Part shown: positions 10,601 to 62,977 of the stretch, piece by piece
Position numbering within the stretch: position 1 is the first letter of the stretch
How the letters are laid out: each line of letters opens with the position of its first letter
Origin: Yuukianura sp. NJ FZ-2021
Taxonomy: Eukaryota
Direction of reading: 5' to 3'
Length of the DNA stretch: 64,000 nt
NCBI GenBank assembly: GCA_046563655.1
Contig: CM102284.1
Location: 4,092,001-4,156,000 of the forward strand
Position numbers and translations under genes: made by a program
The notes under the pieces: generated by a model
What the model was told of the DNA's origin: nothing
Databases searched by the model: none
The model's input: the letters and a program-made list of their open reading frames with translations, nothing else

Positions 10601-11074
10601 CCACTGTTGGTGGTGGTGGCTCCGTGGAACTGTGGTGGTGATCGATGTCCTCTCTTGGAGATTGTGGTGGCTCAACACGTATATTGTGAAAGTCGCTTGG
10701 TCCGTATTGGTCATCTAGTAGAATTCCGTCGTCATAGTAGGCCGGTGAGCCCTCTGGCCTCGGTGGCTCCACTGCCGGGGGGTACGGTAACCTCGGGCGG
10801 GGGTAGTTCCAAGAACCGTCTGAAAATGTCAATACAAAAATGATTGAAAGTTTTAGAATATTAAAATAGTATTGAAATTCTGAACAAGTTTCAAAATACG
10901 ATTAAACAGAAAACGTGTCCAAAATTCCGAACATCAAAATCATAAACCAAAGTAAGTGCAGAAGTCAGGTCAAAAGCGTTTAGGTGAATTTCATGTTTTT
11001 GGAGGTAAGGTCAAGGTCGTGCTATACAGTGAGCGTTTACCTGATGATTTCTGTTTGATGGAAGCTGGTGGCAT
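7602..11074 (-). CDS. Single-pass membrane protein with FNDC4/FNDC5-like TM/juxtamembrane segment; exons 11074-11041, 10819-10419, 8009-7602
   Basis: 'GEEIGIVIVVLLLWVGAIALFFNRWGKIRMLEPYQPK' resembles the FNDC5 TM region as I recall it (GEVLIIVVVLFMWAGVIALF...); splice phases 1 and 0 join the exons in frame; the first exon is least certain. Confidence 0.7.
9667..10064. mobile_element. hAT-type MITE (~400 bp)
   Basis: 13-bp TIR CAGTGTTGGTGGA / TCCACCAACACTG; 8-bp TSD CAGGTTAG at 9659-9666 and 10065-10072; internal TGGATATCCA subterminal palindromes. Confidence 0.85.
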
Positions 11075-14017: not shown

Positions 14018-15055
14018 TTAGTTTTTAGCTTTCTTCGATGTCCCTTGTGAGCTTCTGCGTCCTTTGCGCTTGCCTGGAAGTCGTCGAGATGGGGACTGGA
14101 CTTCATCTTGCCCCATTTCACTGTCAAGTTCCTCATCTGAAGCGTCAGCAACTCCGGATGTGTTCGACTGCAAACGTGAAGGAGTTGACGCGGTTCGACT
14201 CTGGCTTCGCGTCGTCATGCGTGGTGAAACAAGTGATATCGTAGGGGTCGCAGTCGTATCGGAAGACACAATTGGACTGGCAACGTCTGCTGAAGCTCCA
14301 GACTGCTTCGGGACCGCCACTTCCGTTTCGTCGATTTGGTTGTAGTTGACCTCCGCGCTAGCAGTATTTGCCTGAAGTTCATCCGCTGGAATCGGAGTCG
14401 TATTTGCTTGCAGTTCATCCGCTGGAAGCGAAGTCGCATTTGCTTGAAGTTCATCCGCTGGAATCGGAGTCGTATGTGCTTGAAGTTCATCCGCTGGAAT
14501 CGGAGTCGCATTTGCTTGAAGTTCATCCGCTGGAATCGGAGTCGCATTTGCTTGAAGTTCATCCGCTGGAATCGGAGTCGTATGTGCTTGAAGTTCATCC
14601 GCTGGAATCGGAGTCGCATTTGCTTGAAGTTCATCCGCTGGAATCGGAGTCGCATTTGCTTGAAGTTCATCCGCTGGAATCGGAGTCGCATTTGCTTGAA
14701 GTTCATCCGCTGGAATCGGAGTCGCATTTGCTTGAAGTTCATCTGCTGGAATCGGAGTCGCATTTGCTTGAAGTTCATCCGCTGGAATCGGCGTCGTATT
14801 TGCTTGAAGTTCGTTCACTGGAATGCGGGCAGGAAGAGTTGCCAAGTCTTCCCGGAATGCTTCCATGTACGGCGTCATGGTGTCCCGTACGATTCTGTCC
14901 ATGACTTGTTTGAAAAGAGGAGTTACTTCGTCCAGAGGCATGTTACGCGATTCTGCCCATGCGAGCATCTCCGCCTCAATTTCTGGAGTCAGCCTTGGTA
15001 AATCTTGGTCCATTTGGACTTGTTCCTGGGCGGAAGTTTGGTTATCATCTGCCAT
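14018..15055 (-). CDS. Intronless 345-aa orphan ORF with 13 x 12-aa repeats and a basic C-terminal NLS-like tail
   Basis: ATG-to-stop ORF with unique sequence on both sides of the repeat; (IPADELQANATP)n; C-terminus 'RRLPGKRKGRRSSQGTSKKAKN'. Confidence 0.6.
   Translation of the reverse strand: MADDNQTSAQEQVQMDQDLPRLTPEIEAEMLAWAESRNMPLDEVTPLFKQVMDRIVRDTMTPYMEAFREDLATLPARIPVNELQANTTPIPADELQANATPIPADELQANATPIPADELQANATPIPADELQANATPIPADELQANATPIPADELQAHTTPIPADELQANATPIPADELQANATPIPADELQAHTTPIPADELQANATSLPADELQANTTPIPADELQANTASAEVNYNQIDETEVAVPKQSGASADVASPIVSSDTTATPTISLVSPRMTTRSQSRTASTPSRLQSNTSGVADASDEELDSEMGQDEVQSPSRRLPGKRKGRRSSQGTSKKAKN
14362..14826. repeat. 36-bp minisatellite, ~13 near-identical units
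   Basis: Unit GCATTTGCTTGAAGTTCATCCGCTGGAATCGGAGTC repeated, with variants such as GTATGTGCTTG. Confidence 0.97.
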
Positions 15056-15426
15056 CGCTTCTGCTAGAACTGGCTCACTACTCGTAATCAGTCAAAAGAC
15101 GTAGCACGATAAATTTTCGAACGATTCTGAGAAGCGATGCGCGATGAAGCGATCATCGACCGAGCGAACCCAAGTGCAGTAGTAGTGAAGTGGATCAGTT
15201 TATTGTGCTGCTCGGGTTGTTGTTAACAACATACTGAAACCATCAAGCCGATGGCGTTACCATGGTAACAGATATCAAAATTTATGGCTGCTAATGCTAT
15301 GTGCTACAAGTAAAGTCTAGAACACAAAAAAAAATTCCAAAACCAGTGCAGTGTTTTAACATTTTTAAAATAATTTTTAATTTGTAAATCACAACAACTC
15401 CAGCTGTACTAAAGGTTAGACGTAAA

Positions 15427-15606
15427 GGACATGTCCGGATAAGAGATTTCTGGGCCCTCGCGAAGCCTTGCATTGCGTGAGATAGGAGTTGAGATGAGAG
15501 AAATGAATGGGAGTAAATCACCATGTAACTTCTCCTATCCCACACCATGCAAAACTCCCATTGGGCCCAGCTCCCATCTCTTTCTTAAGCTTATCCGGAC
15601 ATGTCC
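15427..15606. mobile_element. 180-bp MITE, Spy-like (copy 2)
   Basis: Same sequence as 4167-4346, again AAA|element|TTT, with different outer flanks. Confidence 0.85.
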
Positions 15607-15799
15607 TTTAAGAGTATTTTTAGAATATTTAGTTAAGAATGAGCTGCTAAATTTTGAGACTTCCAAGTGACATGTCATTTCTCGGGTGTCAAGAGAAACC
15701 AAAGTTTGTGAAACGAAAATGATAGTTGAGAAATGAAGTAACGTAATGGTTATGTTGCTGGACGTTGCTGTTATGGGACATGGATTATTCACAGAATAA

Positions 15800-18700
15800 T
15801 TATGGGGTAGCAGGGCACAGGTTGACTGCGGCACATGCTTTTCCTTTGTCAGTGGCCTGAGCCAACAAGCTGAGCAAATACGGACCATAGTCTTCAATCA
15901 ATTCTTTGCACTGAAAAAAAAATTCAAAATCGCTCTTCATTGCCGTCACAATGCCGTCAAGAACTAAAAAAGAGAAATCAATGAAAATTCTTACGTCCTT
16001 CTCATGATTCCTCGGCAACAATGGACAAACTTTCTCAACCAACTTTTCAATGGAGGTGTCCACAGTGGGGTCATCCAGAAAGGCACTCAAGTAGCTCGCA
16101 ATGAGCTCACAGAGTTCGCATCTATTCATGTTGGTCAAATCCATCGCAACTGCAAAGTCCAAGGTCAAATTCAGCGATTGATATTATGATAAAGTAGAAC
16201 TAATTACGTACATTCTTCTTCACTAGAATCAGAATCCAATTCAAGTCCCCCGTTGCAAAGCTTGAGTTCAGTGCAAATTCGTCTCGGTTCCATCTGATGC
16301 GTGAGATAATTTATCACGGTATCTCCGTACTGTTCAATGAAATCGCGACAGGAAGTCCGCAGCGTCCGTGGTACCCATTTGCAAACTTGCTCCACAGTTT
16401 CCTTGATTTCCTCCTAGACATGAAAAATTGAAAATTAACAATTGTACGAGGGAATCTTTTAAAAATTACACTGACCTCTGTGGCGTTGTCAGTCAGCATT
16501 GAATCCAATCTCGTAATGACAAATTCGCACAGTGGGCACGAAGGTTTCTCATCTACTGGGTCTATCCTTTCCAATTCATCGTTTACCATGACCTGTTCGC
16601 CTCTATTCATGTTGGTCAGATCCATCGCAACTGCAAAGTCCAAGGTCAAATCCCAGCAATTGATATTATTATGATAAAGTAGAAGTAATTACGTACGTTC
16701 TTCTTCACTGGAATCAGAATCCAATTCTAGTCTCCCGTTGCAAAGCTTGAGTTTTGTACAAATTCGTTTAGGTTCTACGTTATGCGAGAAATAATTGATA
16801 ACGGTTTCTCCGTACTGTTTGATGAAATCACGACAGGAATGCCGCAGCGTCCGTGGTACCCATTTACAAACCACCTCAACAGATTCCCTGATTTCCACCT
16901 ATTAATAGACAAGAAAAAATTAAAAAGTGTGCTAGCGGATTTTTTAAAAGATAACACCCACCTCTGTGGCGTTGTCAGTCAGCATTGAATCCAATCTCGA
17001 AATGACAAATTCGCACAGTGGGCACGAAGGTTTCTTATCTACTGGCTCCATCTTTTCCAATTCATCGTTTGCCATGACCTGGGGCATGTAGCGGTCAAAC
17101 GGCAGCCCAGCTTCCACCACGAGTGGCACATTTGGAGTGTTCTGAGTTGGCATTGGTGATCCTAGTAAGCAAAGTCCAATTGCTGTGCAAATTCCATGGG
17201 CTGTTCCATCAATCAAAATCATTTCAGCAACTTTGTCTCCGTATTCCTTCATAAAAGTGAGGCATTCTTCCTTGTAGTGAGTTGGAATAACGTAACAAAC
17301 TCTTTCCATTGCATGATCAATTGTTTCCTGAAAACAAAAAATACCTATATGAGAAAAGGCGGAACATGAATGGGAAATAGTAGTATTAACATCTTGCCTG
17401 TGTTCTGTTCTTCCCTGCGAGCAGTTCAAAGATCTTGCCAACCGTGAACGTACAAATTCCACACGTCGGAAGGATATCCGACACGCCTTTCTTGGCAACG
17501 ACGGACGCTCCAGTCATCTTCTCCGCAGGAGTCAGCTTGACCATAGGATACTCCCAGACCAGTTGCTCGTCATCTCCAGTCAATTTCTCCGCCGGCTGGA
17601 GCTTTGTCATTGGATAAGTGAATCCTGGCTGATGGGAAGGCCGTTCATCGTCACCAGTCCATTTTTGTGCAGGCTCAAGTTTCGTCAAAGAAGCATCCGA
17701 ATGCAGAATTGTCCAAAGTGGAGCTGGATTTGAGGCGGAGCTGAAGAGCTACAGAGACAACAGACAGAAAAATCTACTTATATAAAATCGAGACCCTGTT
17801 TATCTGTGTGTGTGTGTGTGTGTTCCACTACTCCTCCGAAACTACTGGACCGGTTTGGACAAATGAGGTGTCCTTTTCTTCGTGAGGTCACCCCGAAGAG
17901 CATAGGCTATGTGACATCTTGACCTGTGACCTTTGACCCTTGACCTAGCGCGATGACCTCACAAAATCGTACCAAACACAGGTAAGTGACATGTCATTCG
18001 AAAGCAGAGGTCAAATGCAGTCGATTGATGCATGACACATTGACCTGTGACCTTTGACCCAGAGCGGTGACTTGACATAGAATTAAGCCGAACATAGGCA
18101 TGTGATATATCATTTGAACGGGGAGGTTGAAAGGAGTTGATTGTGGTATAACACGATGATCTACGACCTTTGACCCTTGACCCAGAGCGGTGACCTCATA
18201 TAGAATTAAGCTGAACATAGGCATGTGATATGTTGTTCGAAAGGGAAGGTTCAGAATAGATTGACGTATGACGCACTGTCCTGTGACCCTTGACCCTTCA
18301 GCCACAGCGGTGACCTCATATAGAATTAAGCTGAACATTGGCATGTGATACGTTGTTCGAAAAGGGAGGTTCAAAGTCAAATGCAGTCGATTTATATATG
18401 AGATTGACCTGTGACCTTTGATCTATGGCGGTGACCCCATAAGAAGTACATACAAACATAGGCCTGCGATATATCATTCGAAAGAGGCGGTCAAATGGAC
18501 TCGGTTGATCTATGGCGCGTTAATTTTGTGACCTTTGGCACCAAAAAGAATTAAGTTCCACAGTAAATTGTTGTCTCTAATTAATGTTAAACATTTAATT
18601 GGATGGACGGGTAGTTGTAAGGGATTTCCGCCTGGGCAAAGGGTAGAGAAGGATAATTTTCATAAAAATAGTCCAAGCGGGTCCGGTATCGCAAATGGGT

Positions 18701-20869
18701 AGCAGCGGGTTCCCAAAAGTGATACATTGTTCTATGTGTGTTGGCATACACTACCACAAAAGCTAGCCCCGCTTTCACAAGCGGGTATCATACCTTGTCC
18801 GAATATAAAAGGTTTTAAATCTGTATTCTTTTAGCGCTTGATTTACCTTCACTCTTCCTGCAATTGAACTGGTCTGATTACATTGTTCAATGAAGATGCA
18901 AAAGTTCACTGGATCCAATTCCTCGACAATCAAATTATAAACAAGGTCTCCATATTCATTTGCCATCTTCAAACACTGTAAACACATTACAATACTTTAA
19001 ACAACAGAATCCACGGGAATTCGTCATTTCTATCTCTACTTGCTCTTCCTTCCGTACCTCCTGAGCATATTTTCCAGTTTGTTTACAAAGTCCCGTGATG
19101 ATTTCCTTGAATTCTTCTTTCGTCGTGTCAGACGTGAACCACTGCTTCATGTAACTTACCAATTGCTTGCAAAAGTCACATTGGTAGTCCGTCAATGGTG
19201 GTCTCAAGGCTTGAACGCCATTTGGAGAACCCTCAACTTTGACCTTTAAAACGTAAACAAAAGGAAAGTTTATTAGTTTTTGACAATACAATTGCATTAG
19301 TTTTATATTAACATAAACTCTGTGGTTAGTATTGAATGAACTTCGAATCTTCTCAAAAACAAACATAAATGTACTTACTGGATTGAAGGAAACAACTTCG
19401 CACAAACCAATCACACCGCAAGCTTCAACAGGGCTTAGCTCATTCTGGACGTAATCATAAATAGAATCGATGTTATCCATTGCTGTGGCGCGACAAGCAT
19501 CCGAGTAGCTCCCAAGGTGTCCACAGACCTGAAACACAAAATTATTTCGTAAACCTTGGATTCTATTTCAGTAAAACTACCGAATTTACATACTTCAAAG
19601 ATTTTATGGAGCAACTGATCCTTGGTCAAATTCTTGATAGTGTCAACGAACTTTCCGACATAGTGGGAGCATTTTGGACAAGAATCTTCCATGATGTCAA
19701 AGCTGCCAGAATCTTTCGTCTCTTCAATTTCCTTCATTTGTCCAAGCATTTCATCTATGCGAATGGAATTGCAGAGTCCAGAAACAGCGCAAACTGCTTG
19801 TGGATCCATACGGGACACAAGGGCGTCAATGAGTTCCGGAATAAACTCATCCGCAAGTTTGGAACATTCATCGGAAACTATTTTAAGGGGGATGAGTTTG
19901 CAGCTCCCTTCAAGGACTTGACGTAGCTCATCCTACAAACAAATCATCGCAAATCAGTTGATTAGTTTCATAAATCCATTTTTCAGCAAACACCCACTTG
20001 TGTTTCGTTGCTCAGAAGTTGATCTCGAGCTTGTTTGACCATGTCCTTGCAAATGTCGCAGACATCGTCGTTGTCTTCGGGCAATTTCATGTGTTCCCAT
20101 ACTCGTCCAATACAGTGCTTCACTGCTCCACACTCCTTCGCCTGACTGAAATTGAATTCATACAGAAAATTAGATTAACAGTTACCAAGTGGTTTACAGC
20201 TTCCTATTTTCATCGAATGTCATAGCGCTTGGATCTTTTCATGCTCATTTCAGGAGCTACATAGCAAAGCAAAAGCCTTTGAGAAAAATGTTGTTGCAAA
20301 TCGAGAAGTGGGGATAAGTGTTTTGGAAAGTTTAATCTCTGCTGTCAAGGCTCAAAGATTACAACAACAAGCAATGAACTCAGAGGTCACATGAAGAAAA
20401 AAACAAGAGAGATGAGCCAAACCCTGCTGCGCCTCTAAGAAAAGACTACGCAGCGCATCTTCAATGCTTCATTACTCGACAATTGGTTATCGTAACTTGA
20501 TTGGTCACAAGTCATATGAGTAATGAACGCTGTTTTTACATCTCTTCGACGGAAATCCAGTTGACGAACCGTTTAAGGTACTATGATAGGGAAAAGACTT
20601 GTATCTACTTAATTACAAATTACCAGTTTCTAGTACATAATATCGACTATAATTTCCGAATTCCGTTGAGGTTTAGGCACTTACGTAATGTTGTGACACC
20701 AATATGCTGGTCCTCTGGTACACATTTTGGTGCCAAACAGTGGCCGGGCCGTAGTAACATCAACTTCGACCTCATTTTCCGTCGGTTCTTCGTAATTGAC
20801 AACGTAGGGACTGGATGTCACAACTGAAAATGTAACAAACACCAAACAAATTAGTATAAGAGCCTTCAT
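15800..20869 (-). CDS. PSAP: Prosaposin / saposin-related multi-SapB precursor (~13 exons)
   Basis: Signal peptide MKALILICLVFVTFSVVTS, SapA motif 'LFGTKMCTRGPAYWCHNIT..AKECGAVKHC', and successive six-Cys SapB domains (CDICK, CPKCS, CDFCK, CGICT, CPLCE x2, CELCE) ending 'KACAAVNLCPATP*'. Confidence 0.93.
16122..17080. repeat. Tandem ~480-bp duplication inside prosaposin (two exons plus introns = one extra SapB domain)
   Basis: 16122-~16594 matches 16603-~17080, including intron text 'ctattcatgttggtca..tccatcgcaactgcaaagtccaaggtcaaat' and exon 'KPSCPLCEFVI(T/S)RLDSMLTDNATE'. Confidence 0.92.
17773..18797 (+). mobile_element. Non-autonomous Helitron-like element in prosaposin intron, with (TG)n microsatellite and ~120-bp internal tandem repeats
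   Basis: Starts A|TCTACTTATATAAAA; (TG)n at ~17803-17822; 3' hairpin CCCGCTT-tcac-AAGCGGG (18768-18785) just before terminal CTTG|T; no TSD. Confidence 0.7.
17880..18540. repeat. ~120-bp diverged tandem repeat, ~5 units
   Basis: Recurrent 'tgacctttgaccc..agcggtgacctca..gaattaagc.gaacataggcatgtgata...ttcgaaag..gaggt(t)ca'. Confidence 0.9.
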
Positions 20870-29112: not shown

Positions 29113-32100
29113 TTACAGAAACGACTCGAGGAGTGAGTCAGTGCGAGTCGCGTTTCGCGGCCTGTTTTTCCTACCGTGAACAGTTGCAGCAACCACTGCA
29201 GCGGTGTCACTTGCCGCCAGTTCTAAGTGTTCTTTTTCAATTTGATTCTGATCTTGGGAGGAACTTTCAAGGACTTGGAGGGGTATGGAGCTTGCGTGTG
29301 GGCTGGAACTGAATTGTGAACTGGATCTTGTGACCCCAGTGACCTGGTGACCCATTCTGCTCGCATCGGGAAACGTCTTGAACGTAGTGCATAAGTAGGA
29401 TGGACTCAAATTGACCGTAGTGGTTCTTCCGCCGTTGGAAATGACTGATGCGTTTCGAATGAGTTTTCCTTGGCCACCACTCTGAAACGTATAGGTGTTG
29501 AGCCGACGTTGGTGATTGAGGCAGAAGTGTTGGTTTTGACTTCCATCTCGGCGGAAAAATCGGAGTCGTTTGCAGAGCGGCACGTTCTCAATGGCAGATC
29601 GAAAACCAGATCGAAATCGGGAGTTCATCCAGGCGTAGATGAAGGGATTACAAATGGTGTGAGCCAGAGCCAGCCATTGGATAATTGGAAAGACGTAGGT
29701 CATGTACTCCCATGCCCAGATACTGGGATACAAGTCGCCAATTACCTGCATAGAAACAAAAAGAACTTTTGAGTTTAGGAGAGGTCAAGCAGGTCAAATC
29801 CACACGAGGTCAAGCATGGTTAGCTCTAAACCGAAGTGTAAAGGTGGAATTTCACTGAGGAATGAGGAAATATGATATGCACATCAAAAATTTGTTAGGT
29901 TTGGGCTTAACAGTGGATTCTTACGATTAGTTAAAGTTAGTTAGGTGAGGTATCGTTTAGTTACGAAATTGCACTTACGACAATTAAGTTGAACGGTAGC
30001 CAGGACACGGAGTAGACAGTTACTACCGTCAGCATCATTTTTATCATCTAAGGAAACAAAAGTAAAAATTTTTGTAAAAGCTGAAATTTTCCAAGGTTGT
30101 AAAATGCCAAACTGGAGCAAAGAGAAAGTTGATAAGTTATGCTAATTTCTAACATAAACTAAAATTTGCATGCAAAAATTGGCAAGAAGTTTTTAATTCT
30201 GCATAAAAATTAATTAACTTCAAAGTTTAGGCGTTCAGCGTATTAAAAAGCACTAAAACTTACGAAATGTGAAAACATGTTACTAAATAATAGTAACAAA
30301 AAGTTTAGAGTTACATTAGAAAAAAACAAACAGCTTGCAGTTTTCCTGATTTTCATATGAAAATTTCTTTGCTAATTCAATATTAAAAATTTGGCATTGC
30401 TGTGGATGTTCCTATGCAAGTCGTATATTCGCTTTGCAATTAATGACGCAAACACATAACGAAATTGTCGTCTTCGGTGCTTCTATAACGCAAGAGTCGT
30501 TCGATAGACGTTTCCTCTTTGAAGGTAATTTTTGGAAGTAAACTTTAGAATTTTTTCATCCAAATTTTTCGGATTCGAAAGATGCTGGAAGCGGCTGAGG
30601 AAGTCATTGAAATGTGATGAAGAAGAGCGGGGGAAAAGAACTTTAGGGAAAAAGGTGAAAATTGGAATTGTGAAAGTAATTTCAAATGGAAAAGCGGTGA
30701 AAGTACGGGAAAAGAACCTTTGGACTTTTCCCGCCTTATTTTTTCTTCTTCTTGTAGCGGAAAAAGTAGTGCACAGTTTAATTTTCATTTAGGAGTGCTT
30801 TCTCTGGCTTCCCATTTGCATTTGTAAAATGACTCATGAAAGTTACTTAGAAATGTAACCAACTTTCACTTTCATACATTTTATGCATTCATCACTTCGA
30901 AATTTTGAAACACTTTTAAAACATTTTCTGACAATAAGTGAGAATAGATTGAGCAGGCAGGCGTAACAAATGCACAACTTTTGATTACTTCAACTTTACT
31001 TTGGGCCAAGTTTAACTTAACCTATAGCCTTCAAAGATCTTTACTTGAAAACTTAAAATGTACTTTGATTAGGTTAACTTTCACAAAGTGAATTGTCAAT
31101 TAAGCTAATTTTCGGTTTGATGAAAGTGGGTTTTGACTAAGGTTATGTTGAATGAGGTTAGTTGAAAGCAATTCTTCGACTAGGTTAGATTCAGTTTCTA
31201 CTACAGGTTATTCCAATTGACTGAATAATCAAATACACTTTATATTTTTGGCATGTATCCAACTGAAATGGAATTGGATGTTATGAGAAAACAGGGGGCT
31301 GGGATTCCTGAAATGCTGAAAGTGCATTTCGATGTGTTCACGGTGAGTTGTAGTTAGGTTGATGGCTGATGGTAAACAGAACATAGTTCCGCAGTTCTTT
31401 GACTTTTGATCCAAGTCCACTCAGTACTGTATTGCTAATGACCTTTTGCCCCGCCCCTAAAGTAACGGTGTTGATTAGGTACAGAACCCCTGGGACGATG
31501 CCCTTCTGTATTAAAGTGAGTTCGTGAAATTGCTCAGGTTGACTGACGGCTGACTCTGTCCAATGTAACCCAAGGTCCAACGGACTTTATGCTATCCAGA
31601 AACAGCTTAATAACATGAACTAGTGAAGTGAAAGTTTCATTCTGCTTTCCATCAGTAAAGTCATTCACTGTTCAGGAAATATAAAATGCCACAACTTAGC
31701 ATTTAAACCACAAAATGAGCTCTTTTAACCATTTCCCATATGTTGACTAATCCAGTGACTAATACGCAAAGAAACTTTGTAAACATTTTCAAAATGATTG
31801 AGGGTGTGGTTTTGATTAGAATTTATTTGGCGCAAGCTGAGAACCGAGCGTGGTGAAATGTTCATTTGAATTGACGCGGAAACGATTTCTGCATTTTAAG
31901 TATTCCTCGGTTCCACCTCTTCAAACTTGTGTAGTAATTTTCCGTCTGTTCCTTGTTGTTGTTCTGCAAACTTAATAACCTTCGTGTCACTTTGACAGAT
32001 GGTGAAAGCATGAAGATTTGAGCCTTCAGTTAATTTGTTATTCAAGAGACTAGATTGTGCCGCTTTCCTTTGTAAGCTAATGTAAACCCATTGTTTCCAT

Positions 32101-35100
32101 GTTGTTTTCACCCTGTTCTATGGTTACAAATGACTTTGGGAAATGATGCTAAGAAGGGCTGTCGTCAAGACTTGGATATTCATTGCTCTTAAAGGCAACT
32201 TTCTCCACTTTCACTTCAAGACAGGAACAGCAGAAAACTTTGTGACTTTCACCTTGAAATACCCCCACCCCGTTTCAGCAGTTAGCCACCGCCCCATCCC
32301 ACTTACAACGTAATTACGTTCTACCTGCACGTCGATGTCTAACATGATACTGTTTTAGGCGTCATCGCTGTGCTGCGGTCAGGATAACGTTTGCACGCGC
32401 GTTTTTTTAAATTGGAGCCCTTGGGCGTCCAAAGATCCTCCTGACGCAAGCTTCCGACTTTTTTCAATTTTGGGTTAGATTCAATTTAAGTTTTGTGTTC
32501 AAGTTTCTTCAAGAGTTTCACAATGTCAAAATTGATTTCGAAGGAAAACTTGAAATTGAGTTGTTTTCGAATTGTTCTGACGCATGACCTGGAATGAATG
32601 ATTTCCTGGCGGAAGCTTTTGTTTGGAAGACAAAAGCTAACTTAACTAACCTTAACTTTTTTGTTGAAAGTGAAACATTGGGATTGTTTTTTCCGTTGTT
32701 TAGAAAACTGTTCTTAACTGGGATGAAGACAAAAGTGAAAGCAAAAGAAAGACTGAGTCAACGGACGTGAGGTAGGCGTGAACGTGACAAATGGTAGCTC
32801 TTAAGACTTTCTAAAAAATGTGTCTAATGACAAAGCCCAAGGCAGAGCAGTTCAAATTGGAAAGTAAATACGACTGAAGGAGAAAGTCTTCCGTCTCTGT
32901 CACTTGACTCATTTGCTCTTTGCTAAAGACAATGTGACTTTACAACTTCTTTTGGTTTAAGTAACAGCTTTATCTTCATCAAGTGTTGTAACAAATCTAA
33001 CTTACACAGCCTAACCTAGGCTAAATTCTCTCAAAAAGTGAAAGTTAACTTGTGAAACTAATCTTGTATGATTCAATTTTGTTCAGAAAGTTCTGGTTCT
33101 TTTGACGTTTTATAACATTTTAAAAAAGTTCTAGAGCAAGCATAGTGGTTTGTCTTTTAGTTTTGAACAAAATTATTTTTCACACAAGAGGTGAGGTTTC
33201 AGGTTAGATGATCGATTATAGGGTCACATTGAGTTTGTAACGTTAGGTTTTAGGTTAGGGTTAGTTGTCAAGTTAGATTATGGGGTTTGTAACCTGTTCT
33301 TGAGCTAATGTTATATGTCATTAGCTCTTTTTGATGTAATCTCCCGCCATCACTTCATGGGAAAACAGCAATCAACAAAAGACGCTTCAGATCTTTTGCC
33401 AGACGACCAACTCCGGAAGAAAGTAAATTCTCAAATCCAAACCAGCACAAAATCACACGCTCTTAACTCTTAAGTAGTACGACACAAGCCAAATGCAAAG
33501 TGCCGCCTCATGCATCATGCAGGTTGTGGTGGTTGTGCATTTGAACAGTTTTAGAAAGCGTCCAAGCGTCGTTTTTAGTAAGCGTTAGAGCCCTTTGTTC
33601 TAAAAAGACAAACAAGGCGTCATTTAAATGGAAAAGTCAGTTTGCATTTACGTCCAAGTGTGAGAGCCACTTCCGCCGGATCCTGGTGGCCTCCGGTGGC
33701 TCTGCTTGCACATCCGACTTGATCCGTTCACAATCGTATTCCTCGTTTGCAAGCTGCAACTGGTGGAGTAAGCGAGCGAAGCAGTGTTTGACCTTGACAT
33801 GCCACGGTGATTTCGCTGTGGCCCTCTGCCGATTCGCTGCTTCTTGGCCCGTCGACACTCGAGGGTTGAGGGACAGTGGCAGTGGACTTTGGTGAGAACT
33901 TGCATGAATGCGGATCGGAACCTCGCATTGATCCAGGCATAGATCAACCTAGAGAGGGAGCAGGGGCGGTTTAGCACAAAGTGATTGTAGCACAAAGTGA
34001 CTTTAGCACAAAGTGACCTTTGACCTCTAGTAACGTGCTTACGGATTATAAGTGGTGTGGGCCATGGCGAGCCAGTGACTGGCGAAGTAGAGGTAAATGA
34101 AAAAGTCGGGTGGGTTTTCAATGGCCGGGGGGTAGATCCCAAGGACAAGGTTCATGGTATTCATCGGGAGCCATGCCAAGGTATAGGCAACCACAACCGC
34201 CAGCGTCATGACAACGGTCTGTTAAACAATTAATAAACAGTCACAATTAACGCAACAACAAAACGCAACAACGGTGGACTAAACATTGTGCGCCGACAGT
34301 GGATACACTTGACATAAAAGTGACCGGACACCTATTCCAGACATCGTAACTTTAGTAGCAAGACAACCGATAGGAATGGCACGCTAACTAGGGTTACCCC
34401 GTTAATCCTCATATTTCGACACTTCAATGTTAAATTTCTCAACAAAATTTTCTCCGAATTTTTGCTTTTTTTTTTAAAAAAAAAATACAACTTTTTTCCC
34501 GTAACTTTCTCCGAAATGAAACAATACTTCGACATTTTCTCGAATCGTTACAACTTTCTCCGGAAAGAAACAACAACAATTTTCTAGCCCTTTTTCAAAA
34601 AAATCAAAATTAGGCTTGTTGCGCAACTTTTTCAGTGTTTGTCTTCCCTAATTGGACTTCTGAAATTTCACAAGTCCTTTTCTTCTTTTTCGAAATCCCC
34701 ACTTTCTAATGCCTAAAAACACAAACAGAAAAAAGTTGATGCTACAATTTTCAAAATTTTGAAAAGAGCACCAGAGCTAATGAAAGTTAAACAATGAAGT
34801 TAGTAGTACAAGCTTAAAGTTAAGCGACGTTCCTAATTGGCCCTAACTTGAATCCCTGGACGAACGAACCAGGAAGTAACTTATAAGTGGATTAGTTGCC
34901 TCATGAATAATGGCTTTTAGAACAGAATTTTGTAAGGACGCTGCTAGTCAAACGCTGTTCTACTTTAAAAGCAATTTGTCCAATCTTTTTAAAACAATTT
35001 CTTAAAAAAAGTAATTTTTCAAAAACATAATTCCTTCCTGAATATGACATGCTACTTTTCTTAACTAAGTGTTCCGAGTAATATCGATGAAGAAGCGGAA

Positions 35101-38100
35101 GAAAGTGGGGACCATAAAGCTAGAAAAATTACACCAGTTAATTTGATTGATTTAGTCCTTGGGAGTGGTATTTTTGAAAAAACCACTTCGAAATTGAAAA
35201 TTTTTAAGTTACTATCAAAAATATTGGAGCGGAACGCCTACATTGGTTGCTTCTTGTGCATCAAGCATGGAGAGACTAAATCAGCGTCTAAGGAGTACTT
35301 AAAGTTAAGTCCATGTTGGTAGTAAGAGGGCCATTTCCTGAAGGAAAATTGATACTTTTTCATACTTTTTTTTTTGATATATCGATTGATCCCAGAGACT
35401 TTCCTAAAGTTGGTAGTAAATACGATCTTGGAGCAAACAATGTTTACTTTTACATTAGATACGCTGTGTAGGAGGGATAATAATGTCAGACACCAGAATG
35501 AGAATTCTATACTCTCATAAAACATAAAAAAAAGTTGAACAAAATATAAATAGTTTTTGAAATTTGAAACATAATCCCACCACAACCTTTTAGAATTAAA
35601 CAAAATGGAACTTTTCTATCTTTAGTTTCAGTTCGAATAACTAAGAGAAAGCTCGTTTCGTTTTTTGTTTTGTTTCGGATCATTTTTCGCATCGCAAAGC
35701 CGCGACAACGATGTTTTGGAAGTAGCCGAAGAAGGAATCTCCTCTGTCAATTCAAATGTAGAAGCTTTTTTTGAAGACGGCTAGATGATGTGAAGCTTTT
35801 TTTGTCACGAAAATTAAAGAAAAAATTGTTTCGGCTCATTTTTTTTTGTTTGAAAAAGTGAAAGTAGGAAGATGTAAAAGTAACTCAATTTCAGGGATAG
35901 TTCTGGATTTCTCATCCTGTAGAAACTCTCTATATGAATTCTGAAATTTCGATGCAGCTTAAGCCTTGAGCCAATTTTGAGAAAATTGGATTCCTGCTGA
36001 ATACTTCAACTTATTCGAGTTTTCAAATTTGAACTTGTTATGAACAAATTCTAGAGTTCTGATTGAAGCGAAGGTATTAACCTGATAATAACTTTTGGCA
36101 CTACTGGATTAACTCACATCTGAAGAAACGAGTTCTTGGATAAATCAAAAAACCTTTGACATTTGACCTCTCAATTTTGAAAATTCAGTTGCCGAAGATG
36201 GAATTAGCCACATTTGAACAACAGGAATTAAACTTTTAGTTGAATTACTTTGCTTCCACGTTGTGTGCATGTGCCAAAGTTAAAAGCGCCGCGCGAGCCC
36301 ATTCACTAGCCGACGGATATGCATCAAAATTTGCTTTAAGTTAACATATACGTCATGCACATAGCAGCTTGCAGTTTGCTTTTGAACGCGCGTCATTACG
36401 GAAATTAATAGTAGCTCAAACTTTAGCTTTCTAAAGAATAACAGCCGCCAGGTTTGCAATTTCCTTAAAAGTGAATTGCAAATTTTTGTAAATGTGCAAA
36501 ACAAAAACAATTTTTTGGGATCTTACCTTCCGTTTGGCCTTGGCCAGTCGCTGATCTCTCGCATCTTCTGCTTCTCCAGGAGCCTTCTTACCCCAAACTG
36601 CCAGAGCTATTCTCGTGTACGTATAAATTAGCACCGCCAATGGGAAGAAGTACTGGAGAACCATCAGGGTTAGACTGTACACCAGTTTGTCCGTTTCATT
36701 CGGCCAAACCTAGAGATCAAACGAGAGTTCAAATGTCATTTAGAACGTAAGGCGGAAAGACATCGTAAACTGACAAGGTCAATAAAGAGAATTTCCTAGA
36801 GAAAGTTCAAATTAGGAGGTCATTGGCATTGACAGGGAAGGTCAAAGCAACATGTTATGTACCCGAATTTAGATGAGTCAAATTATCTAATGATTTTGCA
36901 ATTAAGAACTGACAGGTCGGTAATTAGGTCGGCCATTTCGGTTTTTTAAGCTTTTTTTTTATTTAAGCTATCATTTTAGCAATAAGAAAAGCGGGGGCTT
37001 AGGATAGGTTTTTCTTTTCTAGCCAAGGTTATTTTTCATTCTTAAAAAACTTTTTTAAACAATTTGTATTTAGAATTTTTAGAACACCACGTCAGACGTC
37101 ATTCCGTTTCGTTTTAACAGCAAAGGTCATTAGGAAGCCGAAAGCAGCCATAAATGTGAATGAGATGAATGAAGGCAGGTGGTTTTGATGTAGACTTTCA
37201 CCCCTCCTTTCCCTGTGCTTCCAGAGTCCATAAGGTTATGCTCAACCTAACCGTTAGGTTCAAACGTAACCATTAGGCTCAAAATACCATGTTTCATCGC
37301 TGTCTAAACTGCTTTTTAGAAAAGGCGAAATAACGTTTTAGCCACAGAGTCTTTCATTAGAACCCACCAAAGTGTTGTAATGCTTAAGGCTAATGCTACT
37401 TCTGTGGATGGATTAGATAAATAAACCAAAGGAGGAAGAAGCTCCAATGTGCTTTGAGCTTTAAAAGCTCATCTCTTGCTCCGCACATTCACGTAGTAAC
37501 TTTCTCGTTTTTGTAACTTTGAACAAACTGCACCTCTTAAATTTTGGGTTGGATGGTGACTAATTTATTTGGGCAGAAATTGCTTACAAGAGAAGGAGTT
37601 TCAAACGGTTGAAAAAACTCTCGAGAAGAAAAACAAATAACGTTTATTGGCGTTCCTTCGTTTCAGAAGTGTGAAAAACTGTGTGAACTTCAACAGAATG
37701 TGAAATCGAAGGTTGAAATAACTTTAGCTCAGGGTTAGGTTAAGTAAGCTAACCTCCAAAAAAAAGAGCTAACCTGGTTATGTAATGCTTCAACAGTTTA
37801 AGTGTCATAAGAAGTAAAGAACTAAACATTAAAAATTAAAAACTATAAAAAAATTCTTGTAAGTTTGACTATAATTTATTAGTTTGCATGCTACCCTAAC
37901 CTTAGACACAAAAACGGAAACTGGAAACAAGGACCTTCCGCTTGACCTGAACACGCGAACACACCGTTAGTGTCAATATGTCTGTTTCAATTAGTAGTTT
38001 TTGAAAAGGAAATTACTCATGACACAATTACATAGTGCCTATTACATATATTATTTCTCTTAAAAACAAAAACTTTTCCAAAGTGTAGAATTTTTTAATA

Positions 38101-41100: not shown

Positions 41101-43401
41101 TAGAAACGTTTGTGCAGTTGAAATAAAATAAAACCTAACCACTTCGTTTCGTAATTCAATTTAGGTTGGGTTTTGAGTTAGTCTAACATGAGAGAAAATT
41201 GCACTAGATTTAAAAGCATCAAAATTGGTCTATGTCTGGTCTAGTATCGTTGAAAACCTTCAACAGACCCACATTCTTGTTCAAGAGAAAAGAGAAAGCA
41301 CTTGAGAAGCTTTTGTGGTAAGATGCAGTTTCTTCCAGTTTTTTCTACTTCAACTCATAAAATTGCTGAGTTGTCAGTTACTGTTACTATCAAGCTGAAG
41401 ACTTGAAGACAATTTGGTCAAAGTGAAATTGGACCACAATCGTTTATCTTTAATTGTAATTGTCCTCAAATTGGAACAAACTTTGACCGGCAATGTCAAT
41501 TACATTGTCTTCACTCACCCGCCTTTTCTGTTGCTCCAGCTCTTTCGTGAGCAAAACTTTTCAACCGGAATTAGTTACTCCGTTCGTGCAGGAAAAACTT
41601 TTTCTAATAAAGTTAATGAGGCTGGAAGTTCCCGGCTTTGACTTTCTCCACTTAAGTATGAACTCGTCTTAGCATTTGGGGAATTCAAGTCTTCAAATTT
41701 TAAGCCAAATCTAGCCCGAAACCTGACTTAATTAAAACCTAGCCCTGGCTCGTTTTAAGAACGAAGTTCATTTGTGCGATTCGGAATATGACACGAACTG
41801 TTAAAAATGACACCTCTAGAGTTAACTTAGGTTGCTCTTGAAATTGACTTTGACGTCCTTCTTATGAAAGTGGTGAAAGTCAAGTGCACGTAACATAGCA
41901 AACCAAGTTCTTCACTTGAAGCTCGCCTTTGATTTCAAAGAGGTCGGCAAGTTCAATTGAATTTTTAGACAAACTTTTAATTCCCAAGATAAAAGCTTCA
42001 AAACTACTTGTATGGAGGGCTTCAACTTACTAAAGTTAAAGTTAGGTAAGGCTATGCGTCACTTCAAGGTAACAAGGTATGGGGTACTTTAAGTACTTGA
42101 AAAGGCGAAGGTGTTAAGATAATTAGAAAAGAGTTAAGTGCCCATTCAGGACAAGCGGAACCTGGAAATGCTCTCGTTCCTTTCTATGACAAAGGTGGTT
42201 AAGTATTCCACTAAAAAGAAATTGAGTCCAAAATTACCTTCTTACGACACTCTAGAACATTCAAGCGCCACTTCAAACACAACTTCGAAACTTTAAGGTA
42301 GAGCCTAACCTAATTTTAGGTTAGGCTTTGTTAGACTATGGACTTACTGGAACAGTCCGAAACTTACTAGAAACTGCGCTATTCATTGCTTGCTATTTCA
42401 TATCTCACAGAGAGACATTAAGGAAATTAAAATTAAAGAAATGAAAGTCTAAATGCCTTGAGCAAAAAGTGTTTCAATTTTCAAAAGTACGCTTAAAGCC
42501 AAGTCCAGCAACAAACAAGACCTTAATTAGGTTATGCACTTTTAGCCTAACTTATGTTATGATTTTCTGGCGAATAAGGTTAGGTTCATGCGCTCACAAT
42601 TAGGAATTTAGGTTAGACTGTTTTGGGTTAAAAGTTCTTAGAATTTGGAAGAATGACAGAGGTAGCGTAAACATTCGCATGTATTACGAGGTGTGAAAAT
42701 TTCGCATGATTAGGTGTTGAAGTTTGAAAAATTTGACTCACCTCAGTGCATTCTGGATTTCCATTGACAACTATCATGTCGGTGTACACTGCAATTGGAA
42801 TGGCCGTCAGAATGGCTACGACCCAGACGAGGAAAATGACGAAAACGGCCTGTGAGCGCCGAAGTCTTGGTTTGAGTGGATACAAAATAGCGACATAGCG
42901 GTCTCCCGCGAGAGCCACGAGCGTATATGCAGAAACGAAGACGCAGACGGCCTGCGCAGGCGCCACGAGATGACAGAGTACTTCGCCAAAGGGCCAGTAC
43001 TGCAGTAGGACTGAGATGTACGAGAATGGGACGCAGAGCAGGGCCATCAGGAGGTCACCGACGGCCAGGTTGGCTATCATGTAGTTTGTGACGGTACGCA
43101 TGCGCGGAGAACTGAACACGACGTAACAGACTAGAATGTTGCCGAGGAGTGCCGCCAGGAAGACGGTATTGTAGATGATGTAGATGATCACTTGGAAAGC
43201 AAGGGAAAACTGAACTGTTTCAGTTGGGTAGAGAGTGGTGAAGTTGTCATCGTGAAAGTCAAAGGTCAAGTTGGGCTGGTCATCCATGGGTGTGGTTAGC
43301 ATCAGGTCAAGTGGTTGCGAAGTTAACGGGGTCACGTAGGATTCAATTTCTGCCTGGGACATTCCAAAAGTTTCGAGTTCTGACGAATCTACTTGTTCCA
43401 T
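29113..43401 (-). CDS. RYa-R: Neuropeptide GPCR, RYamide/NPY-like receptor, distal isoform B; exons 43401-42742, 36709-36527, 30047-29979, 29745-29113
   Basis: 'LLGNILVCYVVFSSPRMRTVTNYMIANLAVGDLL', 'YWPFG', 'GDRYVAI', TM5/ICL3 'QYFFPLAVLIYTYTRIALAVWGKKAPGEAEDARDQRLAKAKRK|MIKMMLTVV', 'WLPFN', 'CNPFIYAWMNSRFR'; the ICL3 is typical of arthropod RYamide receptors. Confidence 0.88.
33648..34218 (-). CDS. Alternative proximal TM6-TM7-C-tail cassette (isoform A) of the same GPCR; exons 34218-34043, 33948-33648
   Basis: AG|'TVVMTLAVVVAYTLAWLPMNTMNLVLGIYPPAIENPPDFFIYLYFASHWLAMAHTTYNP|LIYAWINARFRSAF...SHTWT*'; phase-0 acceptor compatible with the exon ending at 36527. Confidence 0.85.
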
Positions 43402-56596: not shown

Positions 56597-59500
56597 CTAT
56601 TTGACATTCCGAACAAACTCGGAAACATAGTCTCGGGAAATCGCAATACTGGAATGGAATCGACCATTTCGGTTAAGATCCTTTGGCCACGGAATAAGTG
56701 TCCACGTATTCAACGATGGATTGTAGCATTCCATGCTTTGTTCATATGGGTCTGTTCCATTTCCACCAACGACGTAAATCAGTCCATTCATTTCAAAAAC
56801 TCCTACAATTTAAAACAAAACAATCGATTAAGCATGCTGTGAAGGAATTCTAATAGTATCTAGAAATTAATGCTTTATGTACCGTAATATGCTCTTCCAT
56901 GATTCATAGGAGCAACCAATTCCCATTTGTCCATATCTGCATCATAAACTTCCACTGAAGTTAACAATCGTGCTACCTTGTCTTCACCGCCAATTGCATA
57001 CAATCGATTTCCATGAGGAAATAATTTGAAACATCGTCGTCCCACATTCATTGATTGAACGCTCAACCATGATGTATCTTTGCTACAATATATTTCTACT
57101 TCCTTCAATGCCTGAGCGTTCGATGAGTTTCCATCTCCCTCGCCTTTGTCAATTCCAATTCCACCAGCCTAAGCAAAACACATTAATAAGACTATCGTTG
57201 CTATTGCTAATATGGAGAGTAAGCTTCATGTTTTGAACATACCGTGTACAGAGTGTCGCCAAAGAAGGCTGAAGCATGACAGCTCCTTGGAAAGTGTAGA
57301 AACGAATTCCCTTTCCATTTTCTTTTAGACGGTTCAACCTTCAAATCCAATTTCTCCACTACGTTTGTTACAACAACGTTTCTGAATTTATCATTCATGT
57401 CACCTCCAATCTGAAACAGACAAAAAATTAAAGTTTAAAATACTATTATACTATTTAACGTTATGATTTTGTCTTATTAAGTTGAGCTTTAAATTATAAA
57501 TACAATACCACATAAATTGAGTCCACAGCACTTGAAACTACTGCACTGAAGCATCGTCGCGCCTTACGTATGGTAAACGCTGGTTGCGGTTCTTTGCGAC
57601 CTCCAGTAAAAATATCTACGTGGTCAGATGAATCCATGGTACCCCAAATTGAGGCATCCGCCTTCATCCCAAATACGGATGATCCCCCAATGTCGTAAAT
57701 ACAGTTTCCAACTTGAACCATAGACGAGAACTCCCTTGGACGTTTCACTTTATGAAGCTTATGAAGTGTATTGCTCTAAAAAATTAAATTGGTTTAAATA
57801 ACAAAATAGCATGAATTCTCCTAATTGTATTTGAGTGTTAAAATACCTTAAAGTCGTAACCTTCCAAATAGCGGGCTCCGTTCTTGATAACTGCATACAC
57901 AAGGACATGTTTCTCCAAACGTTCTCTGGCATTAAAGCGTGTAGCGGGTGGTGACAACGTCGATGCCAAATTGAAACTAGAAGCCGCAACCTGTTTAGCA
58001 GTTTGAGTGGGGTTGGAGGAACCCCAATCCGAATCTGAATCCGATGCAGGTCCAGTCAGAAGAGACTGAGTTTGAGACATGTCTGTAGCCAGAGTAGATG
58101 TTGTTCCAGTACATGGTTCAGCATTGCTTGTTTTATCTGGAATCGCTGTTCCTACCAACGCATTCGATTCCGGCTTAGGTACTGTCGCAGATTCATGTTG
58201 AGTTGATGAACTTCGTGTTCTCATATTCAAAGTGATTGAACTAGGAGCTCCACTCGTCGTAGGATTTGGACTGATTGATGTCGCTGATACTCCAATAACT
58301 GGACTCGAAACAGGTTTCGGAGAACTTGCTGGAAACTGGGTAATTTCGATATCTGTTCTCATGGAAGTAGAAGTTTCAGCAGTCATCGGGTCGGTATAAC
58401 TCTTTTGAGAAGCCTTTGTTACTAGAATGGGAGCATTTTGTTCCGACTTGACCGAAAAAGTAGTAGTCTCGTGGTCTGTAAAGTATGACACTGACGACGT
58501 TGGTTTTTGAATAGGAGAGGTCCAATCAACTTTGCACTTTTGCTCCACTTCTACCAATTTCACTTTAAAGTCGTCCGCGAAAGTATCAGCACTGTTATCG
58601 ATTCCACTTCCACTGCCGCTAGCATTGTGCATTTCGTAAGCCTTGTTTGCTAGTACTTGGTTATGGAGCTGGACACAGTCTGGAATAGATGACAACAGCG
58701 ATCCCGGAGCAAAGGCTTGGCGGAGCACGCGTGGTGAAGCGTCAAATATTTTGCCTAAATCTAACTTTAACACGAGCGGATAGATTTGGTCCTTCCGATT
58801 GGCGAGATCAGCAATAGCCCAAGTTACCACTGCTTTGAGCAGCAAAACGTGCGGTACACCCGTTTTCACTGCTTCCGTCATGTAAACGTTCATCTACAAA
58901 CAAAAAGTACCAAATGTTTATTAAACCTCAACCAATTCAATAGTCAAATTTAATTGAAATAAATTATTGCTTTGCTAACCTCATCGAAAGAAACGTTCGA
59001 AACGAGTGGATTATCGATTGCTTTCTCCAGATTTTTGATTATGTAACTATTGATAATGTCCAGAAGTTTCTTATTTTGCTTCTCCTCTGCAGTTGCTTTC
59101 AGTGTCCAGCAATTGATCAGGCCTTGGATCTCAAATTTTTCAACCACGGCTAACAGGTCTTCCAAAGTAAAAGTATCCTTCAAGAAGAGTTCACGGGAAT
59201 AGTACATTCTAACGACCAAAATTTGGTGTTAATTTCTAAACCAGTTATTAGAGTTGTTCAGTAGCAATCTGAAATAATGAGAATCTCGGACAAACCTGAC
59301 TACCGCTTCGACTGCCGCTGCGTTCAAACCTGGAATGCTAATCACGTCGGCGGCAGCAAGAGAATTCGGCGAGAGCTGTTTTTGCACAAACGGTATTTGT
59401 TGTAGCATAATCCTATGCGCGAAAATATCGGATCGAACCCCATCAAGGTTAGTGTCGGCGGAGTGGTCCGGAGAAGCACAAGCACACAAAAGAAGATCCA

Positions 59501-61174
59501 CATATCTCTTGTTCCTGTAATTTACAGCGTAAATAAAATTAATACGAGACTCTTTTTTTCATGAATAACAATTGCTCTAAAAAGGGATACTTGGACAAAA
59601 CTTCACCTTCGGTCTTCTTCAGTGTAAGTAATGATTGGGAGTGGCATGGCCATGGACATTGTTACAAGCTTGTGAGACGTGGTAATGCAACTTGGAGTTT
59701 CCGACTTCAATTTCCCAGGAAGTGGAGAGGATACCGATGGTTTTGGAGTTTCGTTTAAACTCAGCGTAGTAGAGGACACCGCGGGAGCTTCTGAGTTGCG
59801 CAAAAGGCCTGGCACCGCTGTCTTTAGCGTTGATGACCCTACGATGGCTTCTGAAGTAGATGACGGCGATCCCTGGACGTTCTGCCGTTGTTCTTTTTGC
59901 GATGAAGTCAATGGTAGCATAGATGGAGCCACGGCAACTGCTACTGTGGGAAACATTGGCGAAGAGTTCGATAATGAGTTGATTTCTGGTCGAGGTATGC
60001 CAGTTTCAGTTACAGCTGTCGCTGTCGGAATGGACACCGCGATCGGAATCGGAGCTGCAATTGTACTAGCAGGAACTGGTGTCCTTGGGGAAGTACGGTG
60101 GTCCTCTACTGCATCAAATGTGAGGTCACGTCGAGGTGGGCCTGTATCTTTAATTAGTCCTGAGTTACGAACGTTACAGAGGTTTGAAGACCAAGCGCAT
60201 GCAGGCTCCAATCGTAGGTCAAGAGTGTCCGACGTACCTGAAGCAGAGTTTCCTCGTCCGGTTGGTTCCTCGTTTCCTCGTTCGACCTGGTCAAACTCAG
60301 AACGGGTCACGGGAAGAGAATCGTATTCCTGACATTCCTCAGAGCGACTGGTTGCAGAGGGTTTGGAAGCAGAAAACGGAACCGGAGCCGTAGGGCGCTT
60401 TACGTACATCACAGGCGCAACTCCTGGCCTTGAAGGCACTTTGGATGCGATTATGATTGTTGGTACTACCTTGGAATTCGAAAGTAGGGTTTGTGAGATA
60501 CCGCTGGCAATGCCAGTATTGGTCTTCTTAATGGGAATGTTGCACAACCGTTGTTTCGAATGAGTTACGGGGCTTTTCGTCGTTTCCTTCTCCTTCTTCA
60601 TGACACTTGATGCTTCAGAGTTGCAGGATTTTGGAGATATGAATTTTTTCTTAAAAGAATGACGGGATGGGCCAAATTCAGCCTTCTCATCGTCACTACT
60701 TGCTGCCGAAGAGGAACTACCAATGTCTATAAGATCAATTACCGTATGGGAACGCGTTGTCGTTCTATGGCCATCAAAAGAGCATATAGCACTCGCCGAT
60801 GACGGGGAAATATTCCGTGGACTATGACTCTGCTTTCTGCGCTTGTGCTCTGGAGAACTAGTCGGTGTAGAGGTTACAGAAATCGTGGAATAAGTAGTAG
60901 ATGACGAATCTTGTCTTCGCCGAGAATGCTTTCTACTAGTTTCAGATTTTGCCGGGCAGAGTTGTGTAGATGTAGAATTTGAGGGGCCTGAAACTGAATC
61001 AGTGCTCTGGGTAATATTCGTAGAAGAGGACGGTTGCGGGTTCTGTATCGTTGCAGACGAACCAATTTGACCTGTGGTTTTGGCTTTCTCAACAGCATCA
61101 CCTTGACATGAAAGAGGCATCGTTCTTATTTCTTCTGGTATACTTGGACACGGCGTGGTCGTACGAACCAATTC
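56597..61174 (-). CDS. Atypical BTB-BACK-Kelch (KLHL-like) protein with long S/T/P-rich N-terminus and insert; start uncertain
   Basis: BTB-like 'DLLL...IFAHRIML...AAVEAVVR|MYY..EL...LEDLLAVVEKFEI'; BACK-like 'LLKAVVTWAIADLANRKDQIYPLV'; Kelch repeats 'NCIYDIGG', 'NRLYAIGG...SVEVYDADMDKWELVAPMNHGR', 'GLIYVVGG...SMECYNPSLNTW'. Confidence 0.8.
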
Positions 61175-62500: not shown

Positions 62501-62977
62501 ATGTCTGGCGTGATGGCCAGAATGATTCTTACGGGTGGTTTCGCCTTAATTGTTGCAGCGTTTGCCTATTTTTCAACGAGGGAGGAGCAGAACAGGAACC
62601 ACGAGCACGCCCATACTAACCACCGTTCGGGTCGTGGTGGTGGATCGAGACCCCGACCAGATCCGGATCCTCCGAAAAACGCTTGGCATGATGCAAGGGA
62701 TGCCCCACCAAGACGTCGGGCATCTCGTCGAGACTCGAACTCCTCGAAAAAACCAGCATCAAAGCGACATCAATTGGCATGCACAATCTGCCTTAACGAA
62801 TTCTCAGAGTTACTTGACGCCGGAGCCGACATTTGCAGCACTTCCTGTGGTCACGTTTTTTGCATGAAATGTATCACGGCATACATCGCTTCACAAGACC
62901 ATCCATCCATGGTCAAATGCCCAATTTGTCGCAGCTTTTTCAGTAAGGATTCATTGTCGCGTGTTTTCTTTTCATAG
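62501..62977 (+). CDS. Small C3HC4 RING-finger protein (putative E3 ligase) with N-terminal membrane anchor
   Basis: 'CTICLNEF...STSCGHVFCMKCI...KCPICR...LSRVFFS*'; hydrophobic 'MILTGGFALIVAAFAYFS'; splice acceptor just upstream of the ATG. Confidence 0.85.
   Translation: MSGVMARMILTGGFALIVAAFAYFSTREEQNRNHEHAHTNHRSGRGGGSRPRPDPDPPKNAWHDARDAPPRRRASRRDSNSSKKPASKRHQLACTICLNEFSELLDAGADICSTSCGHVFCMKCITAYIASQDHPSMVKCPICRSFFSKDSLSRVFFS

Follow-up and report, generated by a model that had tools for sequence, protein, structure and literature searches.

Does a single springtail gene supply two RYamide-type receptors by choosing between two 3' ends? The question arises from a 64-kb stretch of the genome of Yuukianura sp. 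NJ FZ-2021 (contig CM102284.1 of assembly GCA_046563655.1, positions 4,092,001 to 4,156,000; hereafter the window). Its minus strand carries the four coding blocks of a neuropeptide G protein-coupled receptor (GPCR) gene of RYamide type: one exon for transmembrane helices (TM) 1 to 4, one exon for TM5 and the third intracellular loop (ICL3), and two cassettes, A and B, each of which runs from TM6 through the third extracellular loop (ECL3), TM7 and helix 8 to a C-terminal tail (Table 1). The layout is that of alternative 3' cassettes, with one 5' exon set followed by two complete modules that have their own stop codons. In our view this is, with reasonable probability, one springtail RYamide-receptor gene whose alternative 3' exon sets would yield two receptors differing in pocket and tail.

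All coding blocks were read from the minus strand with the standard code, and coordinates are window positions. The blocks lie where a preliminary description of this DNA had placed them, and the phase-0 acceptors, ECL3 strings, WLP, NPxIYAW and NxRFR motifs and tail lengths that it had listed are all present in the translations. The outer limits that it gave for the cassettes stood as well; its picture of each cassette as one uninterrupted block did not, because a 94-nt intron in A and a 233-nt GT..AG intron in B (between exons B1 and B2, at the top of TM6) had been missed. The exon-2 donor and the acceptors of A and B are all in phase 0 with GT/AG sites, and both predicted spliced forms are open: 281 common residues are followed by 158 (A) or 233 (B), giving predicted isoforms of 439 and 514 amino acids (aa), respectively. 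Exon 1 matches Pfam 7tm_1 (PF00001) above the cut-off (E 8.1e-35), which places the gene among the class A GPCRs, and class A motifs are found in the translations of exon 1 (GDRYVAI), cassette A (AWLP, NPLIY) and cassette B (SWLP, NPFIY). Taken singly, exon 2 (7.5e-05) and exon A1 (1.5e-04) match the correct regions of the same profile below its cut-off, and exon B2 alone gave no 7tm_1 match in Pfam. The cassettes are strongly diverged, as the description had also said, with 39% identity over 79 aa.

For the search of the window for further receptor exons, profiles were built from 29 RYamide-receptor TM1-5 parts and 38 TM6-helix 8 parts and scanned over all six frames. The TM1-5 profile matched only exon 1 (E 1.4e-80) and exon 2 (3e-27). 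The TM6-helix 8 profile matched B2 (2.5e-23), A1 (5.5e-19), B1 (8.9e-10) and A2 (3.8e-09), its next best match standing at E 0.35; a tblastn search over the window agreed. An origin of the cassettes as chance open reading frames (ORFs) is ruled out by these E-values. Since the next TM1-5 profile match reaches only E 0.57, there is no second TM1-5 set in the 64-kb window, neither in the 20.6 kb ahead of exon 1 nor in the 3.6 kb that separate A from B, where its absence had been claimed beforehand; the six-frame scan found no other GPCR exons in the 64 kb either. The window sequence contains no N.

The family was sought with the exon 1 protein, which matched 134 proteins at E<=0.001; what follows refers to the 120 of them that were listed. 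Almost all of these bear the name RYamide receptor or NPY receptor, and the best four come from springtails, namely Orchesella dallaii, O. cincta and two from Folsomia candida (57-63% identity); no identical protein is among the matches listed. In a tree of TM1-5 parts the window sequence falls within a springtail clade (support 100/99) among the RYamide receptors of insects, crustaceans and chelicerates; all rows of this tree are RYamide-receptor-like, so that it does not by itself exclude other peptide-receptor families, which had no rows. The gene is thus best annotated as a springtail (Collembola) RYamide-type receptor, and the family assignment made earlier is borne out by both the protein matches and the tree placement. 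By these best matches and this placement in the tree, its closest known relatives are the arthropod RYamide receptors (Drosophila CG5811/RYa-R orthologues; luqin/RYamide-type, class A). According to the abstract of a 2025 preprint, most arthropods have a single RYamide receptor. The predicted isoform B shares with these receptors the canonical TM6 (MIKMM..WLPFN), TM7, helix 8 and the TYTF tail motif. Unlike a typical arthropod RYamide receptor gene, the springtail gene holds a second, diverged TM6-TM7-tail module, cassette A.

Cassette B is the canonical arthropod module and, on the preferred reading, the ancestral one. It begins with MIKMML, as in other arthropods, and keeps the TYTF tail motif; its last exon is open over 211 codons. 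When both cassettes were scored against the 111 listed RYamide receptors that match both, B scored higher with 100 and A with nine, with two ties. The C-termini of B-type sequences follow the pattern ESF[LMI]-stop, with ESFL in the window, ESFM in O. dallaii and ESFI in the B-type gene of Folsomia.

A-type cassettes start with T-V, carry AWLP in TM6 as well as LAMAHT-x-YNP in TM7, and have a pair of cysteines behind helix 8. With exon A1 as query, phmmer found 61 matches among 1.84 billion cluster representatives; 22 of them were examined. Among these 22 there are eight clear A-type cassettes, one of them from Allacma fusca. The A-type matches are ORFs called on genomic contigs, and in most of them the codon before the first threonine is CAG (Gln), a conserved splice acceptor that has been read through. 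Only one of the 22, the Folsomia model P0162, is a full-length protein with TM1-5 and an A-like cassette, and none is clearly transcript-derived. A word-indexed search of longer proteins with exon A1 alone gave none at E<=0.01; the A-type part of the O. cincta protein as query gave four proteins, three of which are cassette-only ORFs, and no further full-length A-type protein. The C-terminus [PH]-[IVT]-W-T-stop occurs in nine of the 13 A-type sequences that reach a stop codon (the window, the metagenome locus L003 and P0121-P0127) and is absent from P0002, P0003, P0139 and P0162.

In a tree of 38 hand-chosen TM6-helix 8 segments, all A-type rows form one clade (12/12, support 99/96), which contains springtail-like sequences only. 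Cassette A of the window is sister to that of Allacma, and cassette B pairs with that of O. dallaii (91/91). Forcing the two cassettes of the window together is rejected by the approximately unbiased (AU) test (p-AU 6.4e-5), and a recent duplication of the cassette within this lineage is thereby ruled out. The split between A and B is old, and A would be a springtail-wide duplicate of B dating from that time. Folsomia candida has at least three RYamide-receptor genes, two A-like ones on one scaffold and a B-type one on another.

Nine loci were returned when metagenome contigs of the JGI were scanned with an A-type alignment; the contigs of P0128 (42.9 kb) and P0122 (15 kb) were not among them. 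In five of the nine (L001, L002, L005, L008, L009), as in the window, the A-type cassette is immediately preceded by a TM5 exon; the remaining four have too little upstream sequence or no TM5 match. L003 is the closest relative of cassette A, with 118 of 151 aligned residues identical. At the DNA level the coding part of the two aligns at 75-78% and the flanks no longer align. Ratios of nonsynonymous (dN) to synonymous (dS) substitution between cassette A and L003 were estimated over 151 codons by the Nei-Gojobori method. Overall dN is 0.154 and dS 1.27 (dN/dS 0.12), with 0.068 for TM6-helix 8 and 0.19 for the tail; because dS is close to saturation these ratios are rough, and their direction is clear. 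Cassette A is under purifying selection. Both cassettes are intact and conserved, A in this ratio and in its 12/12 clade, B in its canonical motifs and its conserved C-terminus, which supports the view that selection has kept both modules.

A comparative argument for a common 5' half comes from the disagreement between the two trees: TM1-5 parts group by species, cassettes by type. The gene models of O. cincta (A-type) and O. dallaii (B-type) are 87% identical in TM1-5, where they are sisters (100/99), and only 31% identical in their cassettes. The TM1-5 parts of the three Folsomia genes likewise group together (92/98), and a TM1-5 tree in which the A-type genes are constrained to one group is rejected (p-AU 2.5e-6). 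Each Orchesella species has one full-length RYamide receptor among the listed exon-1 matches, which fits a single gene for which annotators chose different cassettes.

If alternative 3' exons are indeed used, the phase-0 donor of exon 2 (36527) would join either the proximal acceptor at 34218, giving cassette A, or the distal acceptor at 30047, giving cassette B, with A skipped inside a 6.5-kb intron. Either choice would complete a receptor with seven transmembrane helices. The N-terminus, TM1-5, ECL1-2 and ICL1-3 would be common to both isoforms, and TM6, ECL3, TM7, helix 8 and the whole C-terminal tail would be isoform-specific. We infer that both junctions are used.

The residues that set the cassettes apart suggest where the isoforms may differ. 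Before W-L-P stands Ala in A, Ser in B and Cys in most other arthropods. Nine positions past the TM6 proline, Asp or Glu is found in seven of eight B-type or canonical rows (Asp in B of the window), Gly in A of the window and in L003, and His, Pro, Ser, Asp or Glu in other A-types. In the NPY receptors of vertebrates, an Asp at this position of TM6 contacts a peptide arginine. The A and B tails have no motif in common; B ends in S-x-hydrophobic and A in ..TWT. A C-terminal S/T-x-hydrophobic-COOH is a class I PDZ ligand. Against this background, RYamide may be bound in another way by A than by B, and each tail may have interaction partners of its own. We would thus expect the isoforms to differ in peptide potency or selectivity, and in tail-dependent desensitisation and scaffolding.

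Several observations weigh against a single gene with two alternative 3' ends. In Folsomia the A-type (P0003, P0162) and B-type (P0004) cassettes belong to separate genes that do not share a scaffold and whose TM1-5 parts are only 76% identical; the B-type cassette forms a long, unresolved branch and gives a slightly better score against A than against B, and a clade of all three Folsomia cassettes is not rejected (p-AU 0.095). The groups for the AU tests were also named after the trees had been seen. The two Orchesella models, being from different species, could in principle be paralogues. In the metagenome locus L005 (276-1049, 8357-10378) a B-type ECL3-TM7 exon, which starts at the same exon boundary as B2, lies 7.3 kb upstream of a complete gene with TM1-5 and an A-like cassette. 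As the metagenome loci extend at most 2.1 kb downstream of the A cassette, the order A-then-B is known from the window alone. A second arrangement, L008 (58-306, 2724-5456), has a TM7-like piece upstream of a complete TM1-5 and a diverged A-like cassette; given L005 and L008, tandem RYamide-receptor-like arrays exist in springtail-like genomes, and the family has expanded in some lineages. One could hence suppose that A and B are separate transcription units, either because B has its TM1-5 outside the window, in a nested or very long gene, or because the assembly lost or collapsed a second TM1-5. The separate Folsomia genes, each with its own TM1-5, and the arrays at L005 and L008 speak for such an arrangement, which we nevertheless consider quite improbable for the window. 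The best spurious TM1-5 match in 64 kb has E 0.57, no N marks a gap, upstream lie large unrelated ORFs (57.8-61.2 kb, on the strand of the receptor) and a RING-finger ORF (62.5-63.0 kb), and TM1-5 parts group by species and not by cassette type. The grouping of the Folsomia TM1-5 parts suggests that gene duplication followed the cassette split. The shared TM1-5 with alternative 3' exons proposed in the preliminary description is accordingly supported, indirectly, by the layout, the Orchesella models and the tree disagreement, and opposed by the separate genes of Folsomia.

It might also be that only one cassette is used in this species, A having been recently disabled by a 94-nt insertion in its NPxxY motif, or B being a not-yet-decayed relic of a lost tandem copy. 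Inside the 94-nt block stand three 16-nt repeats in tandem, which have no further copy in the window. The block itself is unique to the window, as L003 and all other A-type cassettes examined lack it, and A would end at NP-stop if it were left unspliced. Against a disabling insertion, the block has a GTAAG donor and a pyrimidine-rich CCCCTGCTCCCTCTCTAG acceptor, its removal restores NP-LIYAW exactly, and the 100 codons behind it are open down to the conserved HTWT-stop, in a tail with a dN/dS of 0.19. Given the good donor and acceptor and the exact restoration of the motif, we read the block as an intron gained in this lineage, within the best conserved TM7 motif, and not as a disabling insertion. 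The 3' end of A offers the single-cassette view a further point, as neither AATAAA nor ATTAAA occurs within 1.8 kb after the A stop (31827-33647, minus strand), the first AATAAA being at 31827. At the average of 1.44 such hexamers per kb for the minus strand of the window, one would expect about 2.6 in 1.8 kb, so that the deviation is not strong. In cassette B, ATTAAA follows the stop at +274 and +279 nt, L003 has its first such poly(A) hexamer about 1 kb after the A stop, and the hexamers downstream of A cassettes in the metagenome loci follow no consistent pattern. As for B, the loss of the 5' half of one copy is a plausible history because other springtail-like contigs do carry RYamide-receptor-like genes in tandem, but an open last exon of 211 codons that keeps both TYTF and ESFL is unlikely for neutral AT-rich DNA. 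Altogether we regard the use of one cassette only as unlikely, if somewhat less so than separate transcription units.

Beyond the window, one gene with two cassettes may tentatively be taken as the ancestral springtail state, a reconstruction that we put at slightly below even. The TM6-TM7-tail module would have been duplicated within the gene ahead of the split of Symphypleona and Entomobryomorpha; A would have become a springtail-specific receptor version with a P-[IV]-W-T end; both forms would still be made in Yuukianura, from one TM1-5 set by 3' exon choice; and later gene duplication would have resolved the isoforms into paralogues like those of Folsomia.

The design itself is not without precedent. 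PMC2650798 describes two isoforms, K3 and AS, of the Drosophila octopamine receptor OAMB. They owe their existence to an alternative last exon, diverge from the third cytoplasmic loop on and showed different signalling in cell assays. As in the springtail gene, the break point lies after ICL3 and before TM6. OAMB differs in being an amine receptor, unrelated beyond class A, and the springtail cassettes comprise two exons each, with an alternative use that is predicted from genomic sequence. A further parallel is the insect ecdysis triggering hormone (ETH) receptor, whose subtypes ETHR-A and ETHR-B, according to PMC8291126 and PMC3510462, derive from alternative 3' exons, are conserved across insects, are expressed in different neurons and show 28- and 320-fold differences in ligand sensitivity in Anopheles. 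Like the springtail gene, ETHR encodes a neuropeptide GPCR and combines a common set of 5' exons with more than one set of 3' exons; it belongs to a different receptor family, and the springtail cassettes are known from their sequence alone. The listings and passages searched for RYamide receptor isoforms or splice variants and for neuropeptide GPCRs of Collembola mentioned neither alternative TM6-7 cassettes nor springtail RYamide receptors. Going by these sources, the alternative 3' cassette design is already known from OAMB and the ETH receptors, and the value of the present case is mainly comparative.

The long ORFs that flank the receptor gene are unrelated to it (Table 1). Downstream, saposin B-type ORFs at 16947-17513 and 18959-19567 (minus strand) lie beside a 357-aa ORF at 14021-15091 without clear family; together (14021-19567, minus strand) they are probably parts of a multi-exon prosaposin-like gene. 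Upstream, the minus-strand ORFs at 57841-58893 (351 aa) and 59606-61174 (523 aa) had no Pfam match at E<=0.001.

Table 1. Exons of the predicted RYamide-type receptor gene and flanking domain-bearing ORFs in the 64-kb window.
Feature	Position	Strand	Remarks
Shared exon 1 (220 codons): ATG start, N-terminus, TM1-TM4	42742-43401	-	donor GTGAGT
Shared exon 2: end of ECL2, TM5, ICL3 up to ...KAKRK	36527-36709	-	phase-0 end, donor GTAAGA
Exon A1: TM6 (AWLP), ECL3, TM7 up to NP	34043-34218	-	phase-0 acceptor ..aacag; donor GTAAGC, phase 2
Cassette A intron, 94 nt, within NP|LIY codons, phase 2	33949-34042	-	GT..AG
Exon A2: LIYAW, helix 8, Cys pair, ~85-aa S/T-rich tail, end ..HTWT	33648-33948	-	stop TAA at 33650-33648
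Exon B1: TM6 (MIKMML..SWLPFN)	29979-30047	-	phase-0 acceptor ..ccttag; donor GTAAGT
Exon B2: ECL3, TM7, helix 8, ~165-aa tail with TYTF, end ..ESFL	29113-29745	-	stop TAA at 29115-29113
KH/zinc-knuckle ORF, splicing-factor-1-like	176-937	+	domain match
EF-hand pair	2089-2532	-	domain match
DUF4808 domain	10395-10901	-	E 2.7e-27
RING finger ORF	62456-62974	+	domain match

If both junctions are used, springtails would obtain from one gene two RYamide receptors that differ in helices 6 and 7, the third extracellular loop and the tail. Such a gene would amount to a clean natural chimera, in which the parts played by the two halves of a peptide GPCR in ligand potency, coupling and desensitisation could be told apart. 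Set beside Folsomia, whose A-type and B-type modules occupy separate genes, it offers a case of the transition from isoform to paralogue. There is also a practical side for annotation: single-isoform springtail gene models choose a cassette arbitrarily (A in O. cincta, B in O. dallaii), which can mislead orthology calls. Should the reconstruction of the ancestral state be true, springtails would provide a natural series in which the splice isoforms of a peptide GPCR turn into paralogues, and would possess two RYamide-receptor pharmacologies, against a single one in most arthropods.

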